A stretch of 64,000 nt of DNA from a virus. Lineage: Duplodnaviria; Caudoviricetes. Of this stretch, positions 9,488 to 17,107 are shown one piece after another. A program made the position numbers and the translations under genes. The notes beneath the pieces were generated by a model. That model was not told where the DNA came from. It did no database searches and saw nothing but the letters and a program-made list of their open reading frames with translations. Every line of letters starts with the position of its first letter. Within the stretch, counting starts at the first letter, position 1. Location: the IMG/VR virus record IMGVR_UViG_3300011008_000004, positions 96,001-160,000 of that record; one strand, 5' to 3'.

Positions 9488-9973
9488 TTATTCAACAGTC
9501 TCTATCTTTTTCATATAGTCAAATATAATCTAATAATCTGACGTTAAAAATACTTTTTTAGCTTCTGATGGCACTTCAAAAACTTTAAACTATTCATCAT
9601 TAACCATTTTTACATTTATAGATTTATAACCAGATTCTTTAAGTCTTTTAACTTCTTCAATAGGAATAAAACACACTTTCTTATGATCTATAAACCATAG
9701 TACAACAAATGCACCGTAGCCTTTAGGTCCAATAGAATGAATCAAATCTTCATACTATCTTAATTTTGCAAAGTTAAAAGTATTTCCTTCTACACTCTTA
9801 CACTCAATAGCCAAACCATATGGGTATTTATATACTAAGTAATCAGCTAATTGCGCAGATGAATGGCCATAACCATTTGTCAAGTCTCTTAATCTATAGA
9901 CGAATATGTCACCTAATCTTAAAAAATCTGCTTTCACCTATTGTTCAAATTCTTTTCCACGATTTGCGGCCAT
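9488..9973 (-). CDS. recU: RecU-like Holliday junction resolvase (161 aa, TAG=Gln)
   Basis: MAANRGKEFEQ..., ADYLVY..IECKS, LR[TAG]YEDL where RecU-family proteins have a conserved Gln. In-frame TAGs at 9938, 9755, 9590 and 9530. Confidence 0.8.
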
Positions 9974-10020
9974 TAAAATATTTCCTAACTATTATATAAA
10001 ATTTATATAATAATTTAGCC

Positions 10021-11160
10021 TCAAATCTTATCATCTATAAGAATTTCAGGAATAAGCTGAACTAAACCTTCACCACTATTTATCGCTAAAGCAGGGGTTG
10101 TACCATATGAAACATCTAACGTTTTAGAATTCATAGCTTTTAGTTGTTTCATTAAATCTGAAAATCTAATAATAGATTCATGTTCAAATGCATTTTCACT
10201 CGATATATAAGGAATTCTTTCAAAATTCTTATTCGTTATAGATACGAACTGGACTTCATTCTCCTTAAATACAAGTTTAGAATATAGCATTACTTCTATA
10301 CCAAACTTCTTATCGAAAACCATCAATCTTGCTAATGCTTTATCTACTGCTTTTTTATCTAATATAACATGTGTTACATGAGATACAGATGCTAATTTTC
10401 TTAATCTTATTGATGGATATGTGTCAGTTAATGCTTGACTTTGAATAACTAAAACTAAACTTATATTATTTGCCTTAAATTTAATTTTACTAGCATAATC
10501 ATAATTAGCTGATGAATCAATCATCAACTCAACTTCATCTATACTATTGAATACTTCTAATAGCTTTGCTTGTGTTACATTTAATAATATCTTAAAATCT
10601 TTATTTCCAAGTCTCTTAAATGTATTTACATATAAATTTTCAGTATAAGTTAAAGCACCTTCTTGATCCACATAAATAAATTGCTGAATTTCATTAGAAA
10701 ATACTGAATCTACGAAACCTTTAGTATTTATAGTCGCAACTGAAGACAGATCATTACCACTTAAAATGATATTATCTACTGTGTCTCTAAATTTAATAAC
10801 ATCTACGGATTTTACATCATCTAATTCCTTTATAATTGGAAATGTAAATTCACTGTTAGAAGTTTTAAATATTAAAGCGTTCATTCTCTCAAACATTTCA
10901 ACGTAGTCATCATCTAACTTTGCAACTAATGGGACAAAAGTATCAGATACTATAGTCGCATGAATTTTATCAGAATTATCACACTCAATTGGAATTACTG
11001 CTTCTAAATAATAATCATAGTTAGATACTTTTAATGTCATCGTATTATCTTCAAATGATTCTAATTCTATCCAACCAGACTTAGGATTTAACTTAGTTTT
11101 CTCTATAGCTAAATTCATTTTAGCTACTATATTTTTTAATTCTGTTATGTTAACTTTCAT
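10021..11160 (-). CDS. DNA polymerase III beta-like sliding clamp
   Basis: 379-aa size, N-terminus MKVNITELKNIV.., three-domain periodicity, located next to polA and a clamp loader. Confidence 0.65.
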   Translation of the reverse strand: MKVNITELKNIVAKMNLAIEKTKLNPKSGWIELESFEDNTMTLKVSNYDYYLEAVIPIECDNSDKIHATIVSDTFVPLVAKLDDDYVEMFERMNALIFKTSNSEFTFPIIKELDDVKSVDVIKFRDTVDNIILSGNDLSSVATINTKGFVDSVFSNEIQQFIYVDQEGALTYTENLYVNTFKRLGNKDFKILLNVTQAKLLEVFNSIDEVELMIDSSANYDYASKIKFKANNISLVLVIQSQALTDTYPSIRLRKLASVSHVTHVILDKKAVDKALARLMVFDKKFGIEVMLYSKLVFKENEVQFVSITNKNFERIPYISSENAFEHESIIRFSDLMKQLKAMNSKTLDVSYGTTPALAINSGEGLVQLIPEILIDDKI

Positions 11161-11179
11161 AATTATCTATACAAATTCC

Positions 11180-12055
11180 TTACACTTCGTCTCTTAATAG
11201 ATCATACGTTCCATCACAAAACTTATCTAAAATTTCATCACTAAATTCTTCATGTTCTGCTTTAACTTCTGCTATTGCTTGTTCTCTAGTTTTACCGTCT
11301 TTTTCAATAGCTGTTGAAATATACTCTTGAATTTCATTCAACATTTCATCCGCATACCATCTCTTTAAGATATATGGATCTGTAACAAATGGAACGTCGA
11401 CCTCAGGCTTAGCTGCATTAGACATTAAATAAGCCAATCTTTCAGAAACTTTTTCAGCGTTTTCTACAGGACATTCTCCTAATAATTCATCATGCACAGG
11501 AATTAGTAATTTATAACCAAGATCATTTATTTCTTTATCTTTAAAAATATTAACCATCGCTTTCTTAGTTAAAGATGCTGCACTTCCTTGAATTCTAGCA
11601 TTCGTACATTGTGTCATTGTTTTTGAAATAAATGCGCCATTATCTAAAACGTCAACTCCATTTTCTTTAGCTAATTCTTTAAACTTAGTTTTAGTCTTAA
11701 AACCTTTACCAGCATAGTTAGTATTATATTCATTAGTCCATCTAGCTGTAGCTTCTTTATCTTCAACTTCTAAAAATACATCTTTAGCTTGACAATCTAA
11801 AAACAGATCACAATTAGTACTCACTTTCTTTTTAGCTGTTACTTTAACTTCCGGTAAATTTGCATCAGGTAAGTGTCTACGTCTACCCATATAATCTTCA
11901 ACATAACCTTGTTCTTTAGCAGCTATAGCATTGCCATCTGTAAATTCTTTTATTTTAGGAAACTTTTCATAAAAATTTTTAAGTATTTCTTGGCATTCTT
12001 CATATGAAACCTTTAATTGTTGTGACATAAGATTAGCGCCCATGCCATACATAAT
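11180..12055 (-). CDS. polA: Family A DNA polymerase, final exon (motif B end and motif C)
   Basis: IMYGMG, GYVEDYMGRRRHLP, NARIQGSAA, PVHDELL. Confidence 0.9.
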   Translation of the reverse strand: MMYGMGANLMSQQLKVSYEECQEILKNFYEKFPKIKEFTDGNAIAAKEQGYVEDYMGRRRHLPDANLPEVKVTAKKKVSTNCDLFLDCQAKDVFLEVEDKEATARWTNEYNTNYAGKGFKTKTKFKELAKENGVDVLDNGAFISKTMTQCTNARIQGSAASLTKKAMVNIFKDKEINDLGYKLLIPVHDELLGECPVENAEKVSERLAYLMSNAAKPEVDVPFVTDPYILKRWYADEMLNEIQEYISTAIEKDGKTREQAIAEVKAEHEEFSDEILDKFCDGTYDLLRDEV

Positions 12056-12168
12056 CGTTTTATTTTAATATTTCTATTAAACCAGACTATCTCATAATCC
12101 TATATTTAGGATTTTACGCACTTCGATTAGTAACAATCTCTAATCTACACACATGTCTGTGTTAGTCG

Positions 12169-13005
12169 TTACACTTTATCTATGAATTTCCACTTAAAAC
12201 CATAAGCGTGTTTTGCTTTACCTTTACACACAGCTGATATAGCTTTAGCTGATGCTAAGCTAACAGCTATCTTATGTTCAACCAAATATTTAGAAGCCTA
12301 TGTCATAGATTTAAATGTCATTAAAATCTAATTATTTGATCTATCAATCATTGCAACTGATTTACTATTCTTATCTGAAATAATATCTCTAGTATGCTAA
12401 GAATGATGTTTATTAAAGAATGAATTGCGTTCACCCACACGTTGTGAAGCTAATATGCTTAACTTTTCATTCTTTACGCCACTATTCAATCTAGATCTAG
12501 ATCTATTAGTACACTTCTTTAATCCCTTATTAGGCGAAATTCTTCCTTTCAATTTGTTAGATATTTCTAAATTAGATTCATACTAATGATCTAAATTAGC
12601 CTAAAATTGTTTACTACATTCATATGCTTTCTAATATAATTCTAAATCAATATCATCTATATTAAAATCTTGTAAAGACTTACCATGTAATATATAGCGT
12701 ATAGATAAAATATTTTTAGATATATCATCATTAGATTTACTACATAATGCTAAAAAATAATGTGATTTTATATGATCTTTATATAATAAATTCACTAAAT
12801 TATTTTCAGAATTGTCTACATCTAAATTATTAGATATGAAATAATATTTGGGAATTATGTGATGCTAGTTATGTCTATAAGATTCATAATTAGTATCAAT
12901 GTTACTAATAATTAAATTTACATATTCATTTAAGTATTCATTATCAATAAATATATTAGTTTGCAATAATTTGTGTTTTAAGATATCAAAATTTATGTTA
13001 TTCAT
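12169..13005 (-). CDS. Intron-encoded HNH homing endonuclease with NUMOD-type DNA-binding repeats (278 aa, TAG=Gln)
   Basis: HN[TAG]HHIIPK...NLVNL..KDHIKSH; RNSFFNKHHS; C-terminal AVCKGKAKHAYGFKWKF. At least 7 in-frame TAGs; AGGAG RBS. Absent from the ORF track. Confidence 0.82.
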
Positions 13006-13018
13006 ACACTCTCCTGTA

Positions 13019-13027
13019 TAATTTAGC
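13019..13027 (-). promoter_or_regulatory. GCTAAATTA late-promoter-like motif inside the intron, upstream of the HNH gene
   Basis: GCTAAATTA-TAC-AGGAG-AGTGT-ATG. Confidence 0.7.
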
Positions 13028-13245
13028 TAGGTATTGTGTATGTTAACATACATAAATCTTAGCACGGTATTATCTGCTATCCAATCGCTGGACCGTAGAA
13101 TCTCTTACGAAGCTTATTCGCACAAAGTCTTAGTTCACTTCTACCGTTAGCAACTATCACTAGTTACACCTCTTTGTAATCAGAGTTCACGTAATTATTC
13201 GATACACATCACTGTGTAAAGGGGCATTATATAACCTTTCAGTCT

Positions 13246-13511
13246 ACCCAACATTAAAGTTTTACCCTTTTTTCTTAATTGTTTTCCTGCAAAGTTAGGA
13301 GAACCATCTTCCCAATGTTCCATACATTCCCAATAATCTTTATGGACTGCTGGTGCATATATAGTTGCATATGGGTCACGTTTCTCTTCAAATGTTCTTC
13401 TCAATTCTGGATCTTGAGAAAGATGAGTGAATAACCGTGGTTCTTGCGCTGACTTCAGGAAAAGTCTCCTCCCACAATTGAATAATTAATTCGTGTTCTT
13501 AGACTTCTCAT
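13246..13511 (-). CDS. polA: Family A DNA polymerase C-terminal subunit, first exon (motif A to motif B), interrupted by 8 extra nt at 13450-13457
   Basis: Strong RBS AAGGAGGTG, then MRSLRTRINYSIVGGDFS-TGA. In the -1/+2 frame it continues SAQEPRLFTHLSQD...RKKGKTLMLG. Confidence 0.8.
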
Positions 13512-13632
13512 TAGCATCACCTCCTTTAGTACCCTCTTGGCACCATCTAATATTTTAATATCTACAAAATGAATACTCACTTTATAGGTAATTCTACTAA
13601 ATTGTATATATTTTCTTATCTTTCTTTAAATT

Positions 13633-13794
13633 TTATACCTTTTGTTTATACGTAAGCAAAGCTTTTACAGATTCTTCATTATATCTATATTTACCATTTA
13701 TATTAGAATCTATTTTTATCAAACCTTGTTTTACATACTTATACAATGTAGGCTTGCTTATCTTCAACAAATTCATCACTTCTTTTGCTTTCAT
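13633..13794 (-). CDS. Small MerR/excisionase-type HTH protein (53 aa) between the polA halves
   Basis: MKAKEVMNLLKISKPTLYKYVKQGLIKIDSNINGKYRYNEESV; its ATG overlaps the polA-N TGA (ATGA). Confidence 0.7.
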   Translation of the reverse strand: MKAKEVMNLLKISKPTLYKYVKQGLIKIDSNINGKYRYNEESVKALLTYKQKV

Positions 13795-15347
13795 GCTACG
13801 TCCTCTAAGGTTAATTTTATTTTATTTTCTAAAACTTCTACTTTAGTTACCTTATAAAACTCATCATCACTTCCAGTGATAATATCATTTTCTTTTATAT
13901 CTTTTATTCTAACCCATTTATTGTTACACATTACATCTACATAATCATTTAAAATTATTTCATTAGAATCTTCTATATTCTCATCTTTATATTCCGTAGA
14001 TGCTTTAAACATCATTCTCATTGAAGTTTCATGTGAAGGAATCTGTTGTAGATTTGGATTAGTTGAACTAAATCTCCCTGTTCTTACGTTATTATCTTCT
14101 GCACCCATTTGATTAAAGTTAGCATGAAGTTTGCCATCTTTTTCAGAAATACAATTTGGAAGAGATTTAGTAAATGTTTTCATTAAAATACTAAAGTGTC
14201 TATAATCTAATAACGCTTTTGTAAATGGGTGATCTATCGCTTTTAACGCTGCTTTATCAGTAGACTTATTTTCATCTAATGGTTTTATCTTTAATATATC
14301 ATATAAAACTATTTTAAGTTGAACTGGACTTTCATAATTTATTGGATCATCTAATTGTCCTAATGATCTATAACTATCTAACTCTTTCTTATATGGGGCT
14401 AATATTTCATTCATCTTATTAGATGCTTTTTCTAAACCTTTAGTATACTTATCATCTAAACGTTTAACATAATCTACGTCAAGACAAATTCCATCATCTT
14501 CCATTTTAGATGTTACTAAAACTATTGGGACTTCTACTTCACTAAATAACTTGTATAATTTTTCACAGCCCTTCTGCTTAAATAACTCTTCTTGATATTG
14601 TTGTAATTTATAAGTATCAAAAGCATCAATAGCTGCATATAATGCAAATATTTCAGGATCGACCCAAGCATAAGGTAAACCAGTAAATAATTTTTCAATA
14701 TTGTATGAACCAATTGTAGGATCTATATGGGTTTTATATTGAAACTTCAATTTAGCTTGTTCATTTTCATTCATCATTTGAGCTGCTATCATTGTGTCCC
14801 ACCATATTGGAAGATATACACCCATAGTGTTAAAACAAACTCGTATATCAAATTTCCCATTATGATATATCATTTTAGTATTATTATCTTTTAATTTTTG
14901 AAATACTTCCTTTACGCACTCATCTGATACTTGATCTTTTAATCTTTCGTCTGTTCCAGGAACACAGTGATTCATTGGAACATATACTGGTTTTGTATTT
15001 GGAAGATACATACACAAACCCATTAACTTACAAGTTAGTGGATCCAAACTATTATTAGTTTCTGTATCGAATGACAAATAATCTACTGCAATGGCTCTAT
15101 CTATATACTCTCGTAATTCATCATCAGTCCTTATAACCTTAACAAAGTTTTTATATCTTCCTAAAATTTTATAAACTTCTTTTGAGATATAATCGAGTCT
15201 ATCTTCTAGTGGCATACTAGAGATAGACTCTTTCTTTTTAACAGCATGAGTTTTGCCAAGTTTTATAAGTTGAAGACGAATAGCGTCATTATTTATAACA
15301 GGAACTTCAAAATCATCTAGCAATGAAGCTTTTCTAAATTCCGCCAT
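13791..15347 (-). CDS. polA: Family A DNA polymerase N-terminal subunit (3'-5' exonuclease and thumb) with a Hint-like C-terminal tail
   Basis: FDTET, HNGKFD and YAAIDA exonuclease motifs; RTGRFSSTNPNLQQIP; ends before motif A. Confidence 0.9.
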   Translation of the reverse strand: MAEFRKASLLDDFEVPVINNDAIRLQLIKLGKTHAVKKKESISSMPLEDRLDYISKEVYKILGRYKNFVKVIRTDDELREYIDRAIAVDYLSFDTETNNSLDPLTCKLMGLCMYLPNTKPVYVPMNHCVPGTDERLKDQVSDECVKEVFQKLKDNNTKMIYHNGKFDIRVCFNTMGVYLPIWWDTMIAAQMMNENEQAKLKFQYKTHIDPTIGSYNIEKLFTGLPYAWVDPEIFALYAAIDAFDTYKLQQYQEELFKQKGCEKLYKLFSEVEVPIVLVTSKMEDDGICLDVDYVKRLDDKYTKGLEKASNKMNEILAPYKKELDSYRSLGQLDDPINYESPVQLKIVLYDILKIKPLDENKSTDKAALKAIDHPFTKALLDYRHFSILMKTFTKSLPNCISEKDGKLHANFNQMGAEDNNVRTGRFSSTNPNLQQIPSHETSMRMMFKASTEYKDENIEDSNEIILNDYVDVMCNNKWVRIKDIKENDIITGSDDEFYKVTKVEVLENKIKLTLEDVA

Positions 15348-15365
15348 ATTGTCTCCTTATATCTA

Positions 15366-16076
15366 TTAAACTTTTCTTGGTTTTATACAAGCATCCATAA
15401 ATGGATCGTCATCATCTACTATTGTAGATTTAACTTCTTCTTTTGGTTGCTCTTCTTGTTTAATAGTTTCTACAAAATCAGAATGACTCGTATTAGCTTT
15501 TACATCATCTTTATTAGATTCTTTTTCAGCCTGTTTCTTTTTTAAGTATTCTTCTTTAGGAATGTAGTTTGAAACATGCTTTGGCATTTCACCAGTCTTT
15601 AAAAACTGTTTAAGCTCATCTACACTTCTTGTAAGATAGAATCTATAAGCTAACTTGTTGTCTATTAAAGATTCGTCTACAGGTGCATAATTTTTAGCAT
15701 TCAAGATATCAACACTATACTTAGGAAACTCTTTACCTTTACGTGTAATTCTAACAACACATTCACTAATATTTCCCCAATCTTTTTCAATTTCTGAAAA
15801 TTGAGTAAGAATCTTATCAGTTCTACACCAAATCTTTTCTTTCTCATCAGCATAATCAAAAAGATGTACGAATATCTTTTTAGCGGGTTGTTTCTCATCA
15901 CTACATATGGGACATCCATCACCTGCACACTTAACCATTTTAGGTTTGCCATTAACTTCTACTTTATGAATCATTACTGATTCAATTGTTTCAACTTTAC
16001 TATGTAATACTCTTACAATAGCTGAATCACCATCGTTGTTTAAGTTGAAAAATTCAATTTGTCTATTCTCTTCCAT
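15366..16076 (-). CDS. Single-stranded DNA-binding protein (gp32-like)
   Basis: FFNLNNDGDSAIVR, C-x4-CPIC zinc motif, acidic C-terminus DDDDPF; lies between primase and polymerase. Confidence 0.7.
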   Translation of the reverse strand: MEENRQIEFFNLNNDGDSAIVRVLHSKVETIESVMIHKVEVNGKPKMVKCAGDGCPICSDEKQPAKKIFVHLFDYADEKEKIWCRTDKILTQFSEIEKDWGNISECVVRITRKGKEFPKYSVDILNAKNYAPVDESLIDNKLAYRFYLTRSVDELKQFLKTGEMPKHVSNYIPKEEYLKKKQAEKESNKDDVKANTSHSDFVETIKQEEQPKEEVKSTIVDDDDPFMDACIKPRKV

Positions 16077-16129
16077 AAATCTCCCTGTGACCTTATGTAT
16101 GTGTCACTCATAATAATATATAAAATCGC

Positions 16130-17107
16130 TTACATGATTTCTCTTTCAGAATAAATTTTTTCAAACTCATGCTGTTCAAGATCATTTATATCCTTTCCTT
16201 TAGGTACTCTCATACAAGTAACGATTTTTCCATGTAAATTTTTCGCTATGTTATATAAACCATGTCTTCCGGCAGTATCATTATCTAAAGCTAAAATTAT
16301 CTCTCTTTGTGGTAACTTATCTAATAATTCTATTTGATAGTCGCTACCAGTACCAAATAATGCTATCGCTTCTTTCCCATATACATAACATGTTAATGCA
16401 TTTATAACACTTTCACAAACTATAACTTCATTAGTTGTTAAATAATCTAAACCATAAATTGGTTTTGGATATATTTCTGGCATATCGAATCTTTTATAGT
16501 TTACATTTCTTCTTGCCACAAATAAACATTTGCCATCTACCCAAACTGGAAATGTTAAAGATTTAGTTTTTGGATCATAACCTACATCGAATTTATTTAT
16601 AATATCATCTGTAAGTTTACGTTTAAACATATATGGGTGTATAAAATCATATGACTTTAATTCATCCAATGTTACAGTAGGTAATGTATTATAATTATTC
16701 TCATATTTTTCATGTTTTTCTAAATCTGTTATTTCTCGCTTTTCTTCTATGAAATCATAATTAGATACATTCAATATCCACTCAGTCGCATCTCTATATG
16801 ATATATTTAAACAATCTGATACAAATTTAACAAAACCTGCTTTATATCCACATGCAAAACAATGAACTGTCCCTGCCGGAATCGCTTCTCCATTTCTAAT
16901 TTTATCTATCAATAAAATATCACAAGATGGCGTGTTTTCGTGGCCATCTGCGTGTATTGGACAAGTTATTCTCGCATTGTTATTATTAGAATAATCTATA
17001 ATATTTAGTTTATCAATATGAGACACGTACAACTGTTGTCTTAACATTTCCAATAAATCTCTTATAGGTGTTTGTATCTCTTTATTGTTATCAACTATTA
17101 ATGGCAT
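16130..17107 (-). CDS. dnaG: DNA primase
   Basis: CPIH...HCFAC zinc finger; TOPRIM motifs VCES, LALDNDTAG, KDIND. Confidence 0.9.
   Translation of the reverse strand: MPLIVDNNKEIQTPIRDLLEMLRQQLYVSHIDKLNIIDYSNNNNARITCPIHADGHENTPSCDILLIDKIRNGEAIPAGTVHCFACGYKAGFVKFVSDCLNISYRDATEWILNVSNYDFIEEKREITDLEKHEKYENNYNTLPTVTLDELKSYDFIHPYMFKRKLTDDIINKFDVGYDPKTKSLTFPVWVDGKCLFVARRNVNYKRFDMPEIYPKPIYGLDYLTTNEVIVCESVINALTCYVYGKEAIALFGTGSDYQIELLDKLPQREIILALDNDTAGRHGLYNIAKNLHGKIVTCMRVPKGKDINDLEQHEFEKIYSEREIM

Follow-up and report, generated by a model that had tools for sequence, protein, structure and literature searches.

The polA locus

We analysed the family A DNA polymerase gene polA in a 64,000-nt stretch of phage DNA (the window; positions 96,001-160,000 of IMG/VR record IMGVR_UViG_3300011008_000004). 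Its catalytic motif A is interrupted by an 8-nt insert led by a stop codon, which is a candidate site of translational bypassing. The source record is 214,257 bp long, has direct terminal repeats and 29.7% G+C, and was treated as a complete genome. A search of the complete 214-kb genome found this family A gene and no other DNA polymerase of family A, B or C.

The gene lies on the minus strand in pieces: part 1, an HTH_17 open reading frame (ORF), part 2 exon 1, an intervening sequence, and exon 2 (Table 1). Part 1 carries the 3'-5' exonuclease and the N-terminal half of the polymerase domain and ends at TGA 13793-13791. Its final 68 aa (13794-13997) form a C-terminal extension that is missing from unsplit relatives; the unsplit genes of loci L004 and L053 continue directly through the split point (MFKASPG(H/Y)VIVGGDF). 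Part 2 starts at ATG 13511, six bases behind a strong Shine-Dalgarno (SD) box GGAGGTGAT (13524-13516). The leader of part 2 encodes the N-terminal extension together with the strand of motif A and its catalytic Asp (GAC 13466-13464). Pfam exonuclease and polymerase domains of family A are found on the pieces. Motif B becomes continuous once the intervening sequence 12056-13245 is taken out, and motif A is restored only by a hop over the insert.

The minus strand at 13472-13438 reads GGA GGA GAC TTT TCC TGA AG TCA GCG CAA GAA CCA CGG and is preceded by GTG (GGA 13472-13470, TCC 13460-13458, TGA 13457-13455, AG 13454-13453, TCA 13452-13450, GCG 13449-13447). Thus direct reading of 13466-13438 confirms the stop and the 8-nt displacement described in an earlier note on this DNA. 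The take-off frame encodes MRSLRTRINYSIVGGDFS followed by the stop, and the frame displaced by 8 nt encodes SAQEPRLFTHLSQDP... Removal of the 8 nt yields DFSAQEPR, which is a family A motif A in which Asp, Glu and Arg are canonically spaced. The restored motif aligns without gaps with uninterrupted polymerases of L003 and L056 (DFSAQEPR) and of L004 and L053 (DFSQQEPR). The landing frame is closed upstream by a TAA and contains no ATG, GTG or TTG between this codon and TCA; the TAA is 11 codons ahead of TCA, not eight as previously stated.

Table 1. Features of the polA locus (positions in the window)
Feature	Position	Strand	Basis or remarks
polA part 1, 518 aa	13794-15347	-	Pfam DNA_pol_A_exo1 and DNA_pol_A positions 4-150
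53-aa HTH_17 ORF between the polA halves	13636-13794	-	Pfam HTH_17, E 2.4e-11
Putative 3' remnant of a GIY-YIG gene, NIRWCQEGTKGGDANEKS	13501-13554	-	resembles intact C-termini (L054 ...NNIKWFKKDGGDVNG) and the L050, L007 and L102 remnants
Shine-Dalgarno box GGAGGTGAT of polA part 2	13516-13524	-	read directly
polA part 2 leader, 18 codons, MRSLRTRINYSIVGGDFS	13458-13511	-	ATG 13511 to take-off TCC 13460-13458
Predicted hairpin GACUUU / UCCU / GAAGUC, 6 bp	13451-13466	-	RNAfold
8-nt insert TGAAGTCA: stop TGA, spacer AG, landing TCA; putatively untranslated	13450-13457	-	read directly; relatives; run X2
polA part 2 exon 1, remainder (AQEPRLFTHLSQDP...KGKTLMLG)	13246-13449	-	alignment A1; dN/dS 0.09 vs L050
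Intervening sequence in motif B (LMLG/IMYGMG), 1190 nt	12056-13245	-	junction set by homology
HNH/NUMOD3 endonuclease ORF inside the motif B intervening sequence	12172-13065	-	eight in-frame TAG codons
polA part 2 exon 2 (IMYGMGANLMS... to C-terminus)	11183-12055	-	Pfam DNA_pol_A positions 288-380; stop 11180-11182

Recurrence of the insert

Relatives were collected by protein-guided and pattern-guided scans of IMG/VR and metagenome contigs. Inserts directly after the Ser codon of D[FY]S were observed in 15 loci, including the window, that represent about 11 lineages (Table 2). Their lengths are 6, 7, 8, 9, 11 and 14 nt, and all three stop codons and all three frame relations occur. Skipping the insert restores D[FY]S[AQG]QEP of the 8-residue motif in every locus (15/15). 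Both the take-off and the landing codon encode Ser in 14 of the 15 loci, and landing is at the first UCN triplet downstream of take-off. The sole exception is the lineage L080-82 with UCG and UUG; here UUG can pair with tRNA-Ser(CGA) through a middle G.U, and it is also a possible start codon. All relatives with inserts have the same SD box and a start codon 18-20 codons ahead of the stop. The earlier note had proposed an alignment of polA from related phages as a check, and its expectation is borne out: a stop-containing insert of variable length recurs between DFS and xQEPR with the pair of Ser codons kept.

Table 2. Candidate hop sites in motif A of polA
Locus	Take-off codon, stop, spacer, landing codon	Hop
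Window	TCC TGA AG TCA	8 nt
L050 (90% identical to the window in part 2 exon 1)	TCT TAA CGA TCT	9 nt
L007	TCT TAG GAA TCT	9 nt
L054	TCT TAG GAG TCA	9 nt
L006, L057, L096	TCT TAG TCT	6 nt
L076	TCT TAG TCA	6 nt
L080-82	TCG TAG TTG	6 nt
L010, L085, L102	TCT TAG G TCA	7 nt
L088	TCT TAG CG TCG	8 nt
L104	TCC TGA GTAAG TCG	11 nt
L087	TCT TAG CGAGAAAG TCT	14 nt

Two of the pattern scans fixed D[FY]S, a stop, 6-18 free nucleotides and CARGA(A/G)CC, and left the landing codon unconstrained; each polymerase that they hit nevertheless carried UCN directly ahead of the resume codon, the UUG lineage excepted. Since these scans demanded a stop, they are no test of the stop in the A site, which held in all cases seen earlier. 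Uninterrupted motifs occur both in unsplit genes (L004, L052, L053, reading MFKASPG(H/Y)VIVGGDFSQQEPR) and in split ones (L003, L056, reading ...TRYAIVGGDFSAQEPR). The tree of 69 residues is poorly resolved; at least six label changes are forced by well-supported branches.

The earlier note described a hairpin GACUUU-UCCU-GAAGUC. It is indeed predicted, with the take-off UCC and the U of the stop in its loop, and GA, AG and the UC of the landing codon in its 3' arm. However, its energy is ordinary by shuffling (z about -0.7, not significant). In most relatives the Asp codon GAC and its neighbours pair with a GUC whose G precedes the landing codon and whose UC begins it, so that the take-off codon and the stop are enclosed. 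The arms follow the Phe or Tyr codon (GACUA with UAGUC, GACUU with AAGUC), and the loop sequences vary. The z-scores are mostly between 0 and -1.5, and reach about -3 only in the 6-nt palindromic cases. The palindromy of the inserts could equally be a trace of fold-back repair at their origin.

The choice of the stop follows the genetic code of the phage. In the phage of the window TAG is a sense codon, as the earlier note had supposed, and TGA is a real stop, because there are two tRNA(CUA) genes in the genome (G000 2606-2680 and 163136-163233), in-frame TAG is present in 59 of 124 long ORFs genome-wide, and these ORFs end in TAA (91 times) or TGA (33 times). The ORF cover rises in several regions when TAG is read as sense. 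The recoders of TAG (the window and L050) use TGA and TAA in the insert, and phages with TAG as a true stop mostly use TAG, which terminates polA itself in L010 and, in L007, a gene nearby. Such a choice is to be expected if the codon in the A site must be undecodable by the phage. The fact that TAG is a sense codon is also a simpler reason for TGA in the window than the coupling of replication to the status of release factor RF2 that had been suggested, which is unsupported speculation.

Purifying selection and independent copies

The landing frame is under strong purifying selection. Downstream of the gap, the synonymous (dS) and non-synonymous (dN) divergences are 0.73 and 0.066 between the window and L050 (dN/dS 0.09), 1.43 and 0.018 between L006 and L057 (0.013), and 2.55 and 0.062 between L007 and L054 (0.02). 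Thus the insert has persisted through saturating synonymous divergence in a strongly constrained gene. The downstream frames are open for 300-360 codons where no intron intervenes. The synonymous divergence of the leader is much below that of the downstream exon, e.g. 0.15 vs 0.73, which fits either a constraint at the RNA level or a recent spread of a cassette.

The locus was also found in sequencing runs, as Logan contigs (depth 2 for X2) and not as raw reads; none of the runs listed is an RNA run. The 151-nt contig X2, from another run of another study, covers 13410-13560 with zero differences, including the 8-nt form. Therefore, this form is not a one-off assembly slip. The 688-nt contig X1 is identical to 13000-13443 (444 nt) and then diverges. 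The minus strand of its divergent end reads GGA GGC GAC TTC TCT GCG CAA GAA TGA CT GAA CCA CGG. This allele has an intact DFSAQE followed, three codons further on, by GAA TGA CT GAA, that is, an 8-nt insert that is again led by TGA and has matched codons, in this case for Glu. The region 13444-13577 is not covered in the form of the window in X1 and X3. Exact and degenerate searches of IMG/VR for alleles of the X1 type (insert after the Glu codon) found none, the sole degenerate match (L109) not being a polymerase. If the X1 allele is real, it is the design that recurs and not the exact site.

Homing-endonuclease cassettes

The earlier note did not include the genomic context: polA is split, there is a homing-endonuclease cassette, and the position of the insert coincides with a group I-like intron site. 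Homologous GIY-YIG genes lie between the polA halves in L054 (intact, at 170-934), L010, L076, L085 and L088 (33-63% mutual identity), and a LAGLIDADG gene is found there in L081 of the lineage L080-L082. At the place of the HTH_17 ORF of the window, relatives carry one of these two genes or nothing. The endonuclease genes of the cassettes stop right at the SD box of the leader. L007 and L102 retain frameshifted 3' remnants of the cassette GIY-YIG gene, and weaker candidate traces occur at the same place in L050 (LNIKRLKAEGGDVN) and in the window (NIRWCQEGTKGGDAN, 13554-13501). The putative remnant in the window is in a reading frame different from that of the leader, overlaps the SD box and the start codon, and has weak tblastn support (E 0.29).

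The limits of the cassette emerge from the comparison of L054 with the unsplit, cassette-free L053. The 69-residue segments are identical, and the DNA identity downstream is about 93%. L054 has exactly nine extra bases (TAGGAGTCA), the synonymous differences are clustered around them, and the upstream sequences are unrelated. As the two loci differ by these nine bases and by the unrelated upstream sequence, the insert marks the right end of the mobile unit.

A group I-like intron is located exactly between DFS and QQEP in L058 (approximately 340-620), L072 (approximately 545-790) and L066, with 3' ends ...G/CAACAAGA. Thus this position is a favoured target of mobile elements. In L058, the tail of part 1 and the leader of part 2 are fused as one ORF.

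A candidate Ser-to-Ser hop and its alternatives

We consider it quite likely that the 8 nt are skipped by a hop from Ser to Ser over the stop, within a decayed homing-endonuclease cassette that resembles, without being homologous to, that of T4 gene 60 and mobA. Ribosomes would start at ATG 13511, translate 18 codons and reach the state with UCC in the P site and UGA in the A site. The peptidyl-tRNA-Ser would then release UCC, the mRNA would slide by 8 nt, and the tRNA would re-pair with UCA, the first downstream UCN codon. Decoding would restart at GCG 13449 and produce ...IVGGDFSAQEPR... with an intact motif A. The cassette would have split polA, lengthening part 1 by a C-terminal tail and part 2 by an N-terminal leader. 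By analogy, the insert probably shields the cassette DNA by interrupting the target of the endonuclease in the conserved motif A. Through decay, only a short remnant of the endonuclease gene would have been left in this phage, and the hop would have been kept.

The core claim of the earlier note, a hop of 8 nt from Ser over the stop to a second Ser that restores motif A, is thus supported, as this is the only reading that also explains the relatives. One mechanism, detachment of peptidyl-tRNA-Ser from the take-off codon and its renewed pairing with the Ser codon that comes next, would cover every case and seems to be the best explanation. It is preferred because the alternatives need different mechanisms in different phages.

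Several observations weigh against a hop. The support for it is comparative throughout, and from the comparison we infer the hop itself, its efficiency and the protective role of the insert. In E. coli constructs, stop-hops that are not programmed work inefficiently (PMC5009743). Nor does the polA site have an obvious strong stimulator: the predicted hairpins are small, mostly with energies that are not significant, and the SD-like run is not conserved. This run, GGAGGAG, had been proposed as a part of the element, and turns out to be merely two Gly codons that are missing in about half of the lineages (G-A-D or S-A-D). The codons UCC and UCA of the window differ at the wobble base, and so re-pairing would need a tRNA-Ser able to read the two codons or to tolerate a mismatch at the wobble position. 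The X1 allele is known from 30 displayed letters of one assembled contig. Finally, the Ser codon may in part be repeated because the insert arose by target-site-like duplication or fold-back repair, and not through selection for matched codons.

Another kind of recoding, in which the extra residues are retained, seems improbable. It would involve a -1 or +2 frameshift in the window (e.g. giving DFFLKSAQEPR), a +1 frameshift where the insert has 7 nt, and readthrough or suppression of the stop in the in-frame inserts of 6 and 9 nt. Recoding is at home in this group, as both the phage of the window and L050 have TAG suppression, and in-frame TAG codons could in principle be read through. However, a separate mechanism would be needed for each lineage, and motif A would gain 1-4 variable residues between its catalytic Asp and its Glu, where no uninterrupted relative shows any length variation. 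As for the -1 slip that the earlier note listed as an alternative, C UUU UCC is not a slippery heptamer and neither tRNA re-pairs after the shift. The stop in L050 is TAA, which is not recoded in these phages, and TAG is a true stop in L010 and L007. The constant Ser codon at the end of the insert would be left unexplained.

Removal of the insert from the mRNA before translation, by a cut-and-rejoin step or as a micro-intron at the small hairpin, is somewhat less probable still. It would agree with the location of most inserts in a small hairpin and with the group I-like intron at the same position in L058, L066 and L072. However, no self-splicing or enzymatic system is known that excises 6-14 nt from bacterial or phage mRNA. 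The ribozyme core of a group I intron is a few hundred nucleotides long and consists of the helices P1-P9. The inserts are far below this size; in the window the insert is 8 nt long, and there is no Rfam hit in 10000-17000. Moreover, excision predicts neither a stop at the first position nor matched Ser codons.

We regard it as very unlikely that the gene is broken, whether as a dead allele, through scarring by endonuclease repair or as an artefact of assembly, so that full-length part 2 is not made. The sequence is derived from a metagenome, palindromic inserts resemble products of fold-back repair, and homing endonucleases do leave scars. Against this stand the same 151 nt in another run, the inserts in relatives and their survival through saturating synonymous divergence with downstream dN/dS of 0.01-0.09, the downstream frames open in about 11 lineages, and the complete genome with no other DNA polymerase. 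An assembly error or a dead mutant, both considered earlier, can thus be set aside.

Least probable is an enzyme in three pieces, with release of an 18-aa leader peptide containing the catalytic Asp and re-initiation just downstream: polA is already two proteins and L080-82 has UUG, a possible start, after the stop, but elsewhere no ATG, GTG or TTG occurs at or near the landing site, the conserved protein begins at the landing codon, and a free peptide of 18 residues that provides an active-site strand is without precedent.

Comparison with known bypass systems

The features of bypassing are observed at the polA locus: removal of the gap restores the protein exactly in the window and 14 other loci, the take-off and landing codons are matched, and the stop is in the A site. 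In the T4 gene 60/MobA system (reviewed in PMC5009743), the endonuclease splits the gene, adds tails and brings along a bypass; the bypass insert prevents self-cleavage, and the bypass often outlasts the nuclease (bioRxiv 10.1101/2022.08.31.505936). The situation in polA is analogous. In both systems the gene of an essential enzyme is split by a free-standing homing endonuclease with the appearance of C- and N-terminal tails, and the second gene has, a few dozen codons from its start, a stop-led, putatively untranslated insert in a conserved catalytic region. The take-off and landing codons match, the stop in the A site is UGA or UAG, and the endonuclease is progressively lost while the bypass is kept. 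As in the MobA cassette, the endonuclease lies between the halves and the insert is a part of the mobile unit, although the window has only a weak candidate remnant of the nuclease.

On the other hand, the affected region is motif A of polA and not the Toprim domain of topoisomerase, the nucleases are GIY-YIG or LAGLIDADG and not HNH as in MobA, and the gap is 6-14 nt compared to 50 nt. The polA gaps contain no internal SD box, and the matched codons are Ser rather than Gly. Take-off would occur at codon 18-20 and not at codon 46, and therefore the long nascent-peptide signal of T4 gene 60 cannot be the same here. As the gene, the nuclease family, the gap length and the leader all differ and no sequence homology was detected, the polA element acts like T4 gene 60 but does not belong to that homologous family. 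Hence the architecture of the T4 gene 60 type invoked in the earlier note holds as an analogy and not as a relationship.

The geometry XYZ-stop-XYZ of synthetic stop-hops is reproduced by UCU UAG UCU of L006, L057 and L096, and in those constructs, too, the peptidyl-tRNA re-pairs at the first matching codon in any frame (PMC5009743). However, they are laboratory constructs of low efficiency, whereas the polA design is fixed in an essential natural gene in many lineages. Natural (in-frame) stop-hops were expected in a 2016 review, and none were known then (PMC5009743).

The nearest natural short case is the 10-nt bypass candidate in the gene that encodes terminase in Streptomyces phage Hau3 (PMC10732093). 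Like the polA inserts, it is a short frame-disrupting block in an essential phage gene, absent from relatives and led by a poorly decoded codon in the A site; its junction peptide was observed by mass spectrometry in E. coli with a UAA variant. It differs in that its A-site codon is a rare sense codon proposed to sense the state of the host, there is no endonuclease cassette, the gene is different and the occurrences are few. The byp elements of Magnusiomyces capitatus, to the extent that they are covered by the citing review (PMC5009743), are also different: they are mitochondrial, 27-55 nt long, rely on an unused codon and relaxed pairing, and are mobile GC-rich elements rather than endonuclease cassettes. 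Full-text literature searches found no description of hops in motif A of polA.

Bypassing has long rested on T4 gene 60 with its close homologues, one yeast mitochondrial system and one Streptomyces phage candidate. The polA loci would add a group of natural hops that are very short (6-14 nt) and that vary naturally in length, frame, stop and landing codon. The location in a catalytic motif makes the product easy to assay, and thus the minimal requirements for take-off and landing are directly testable. Recoding would be tied here to the conflict between homing endonucleases and their hosts, and also to the reassignment of stop codons, as the stop in the A site must not be decoded by the phage. 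As regards annotation, gene callers will describe such polymerases as broken or as three ORFs.

The chances seem to us about even that short stop-hops evolved repeatedly and are in general use by free-standing homing-endonuclease cassettes that insert into the catalytic motifs of essential phage genes. A stop-led insert of 6-14 nt would break the nuclease target where synonymous changes cannot, and the matched codons would keep the protein unchanged. The stop would follow the code of the phage itself (TGA or TAA in TAG recoders), and the alleles would turn over fast (cf. GAA TGA CT GAA). If so, efficient natural short-range bypassing would be common in phages rather than a curiosity of T4.

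Other observations

A genome-wide scan for a codon followed by a stop, a spacer and the same codon produced 936 candidates, mostly out-of-frame stops in ordinary genes. It was dropped as uninformative without homology. A split intein formed by the tail of part 1 and the leader of part 2 was also considered and rejected, as the junction has no Cys or Ser and there is no terminal Asn.

polA itself has zero in-frame TAG codons, unlike the HNH/NUMOD3 ORF. A neighbouring gene (9490-9973, minus strand) has four, and TAG in this gene aligns to K, Q, L/Y and S in relatives, that is, to no single amino acid. In L071, a contig from a human gut metagenome, the sequence of motif A is GGDISQ-TAG-EPK, where TAG takes the place of the conserved Gln. 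Here TAG is recoded as Gln within a catalytic motif, and this is not a hop.

The exon junction in motif B was defined using uninterrupted relatives and the 313-nt version without an ORF that occupies the same site in L050. The intervening sequence is probably a group I-like intron. A Rfam scan of 10000-17000 at E<=1 gave zero hits, and for this reason neither intervening sequence was assigned to a class. A blastn search of GenBank phages found no close cultured relative, the only match being one of 43 nt between the 5' part of the intron and Brochothrix phage A9-like genomes. The matching segment (13195-13237) lies at the 5' end of the intervening sequence; it shares 93% identity with a region close to the terminase gene in these phages and is probably a common element of the intron core.

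L050 has an additional intervening sequence in polA part 1 (L050:2090-2337), between ...SSTNP and NLQQIPS, which is absent from the window. In the same locus the HTH_17 ORF is replaced by a 92-aa ORF of no known family.

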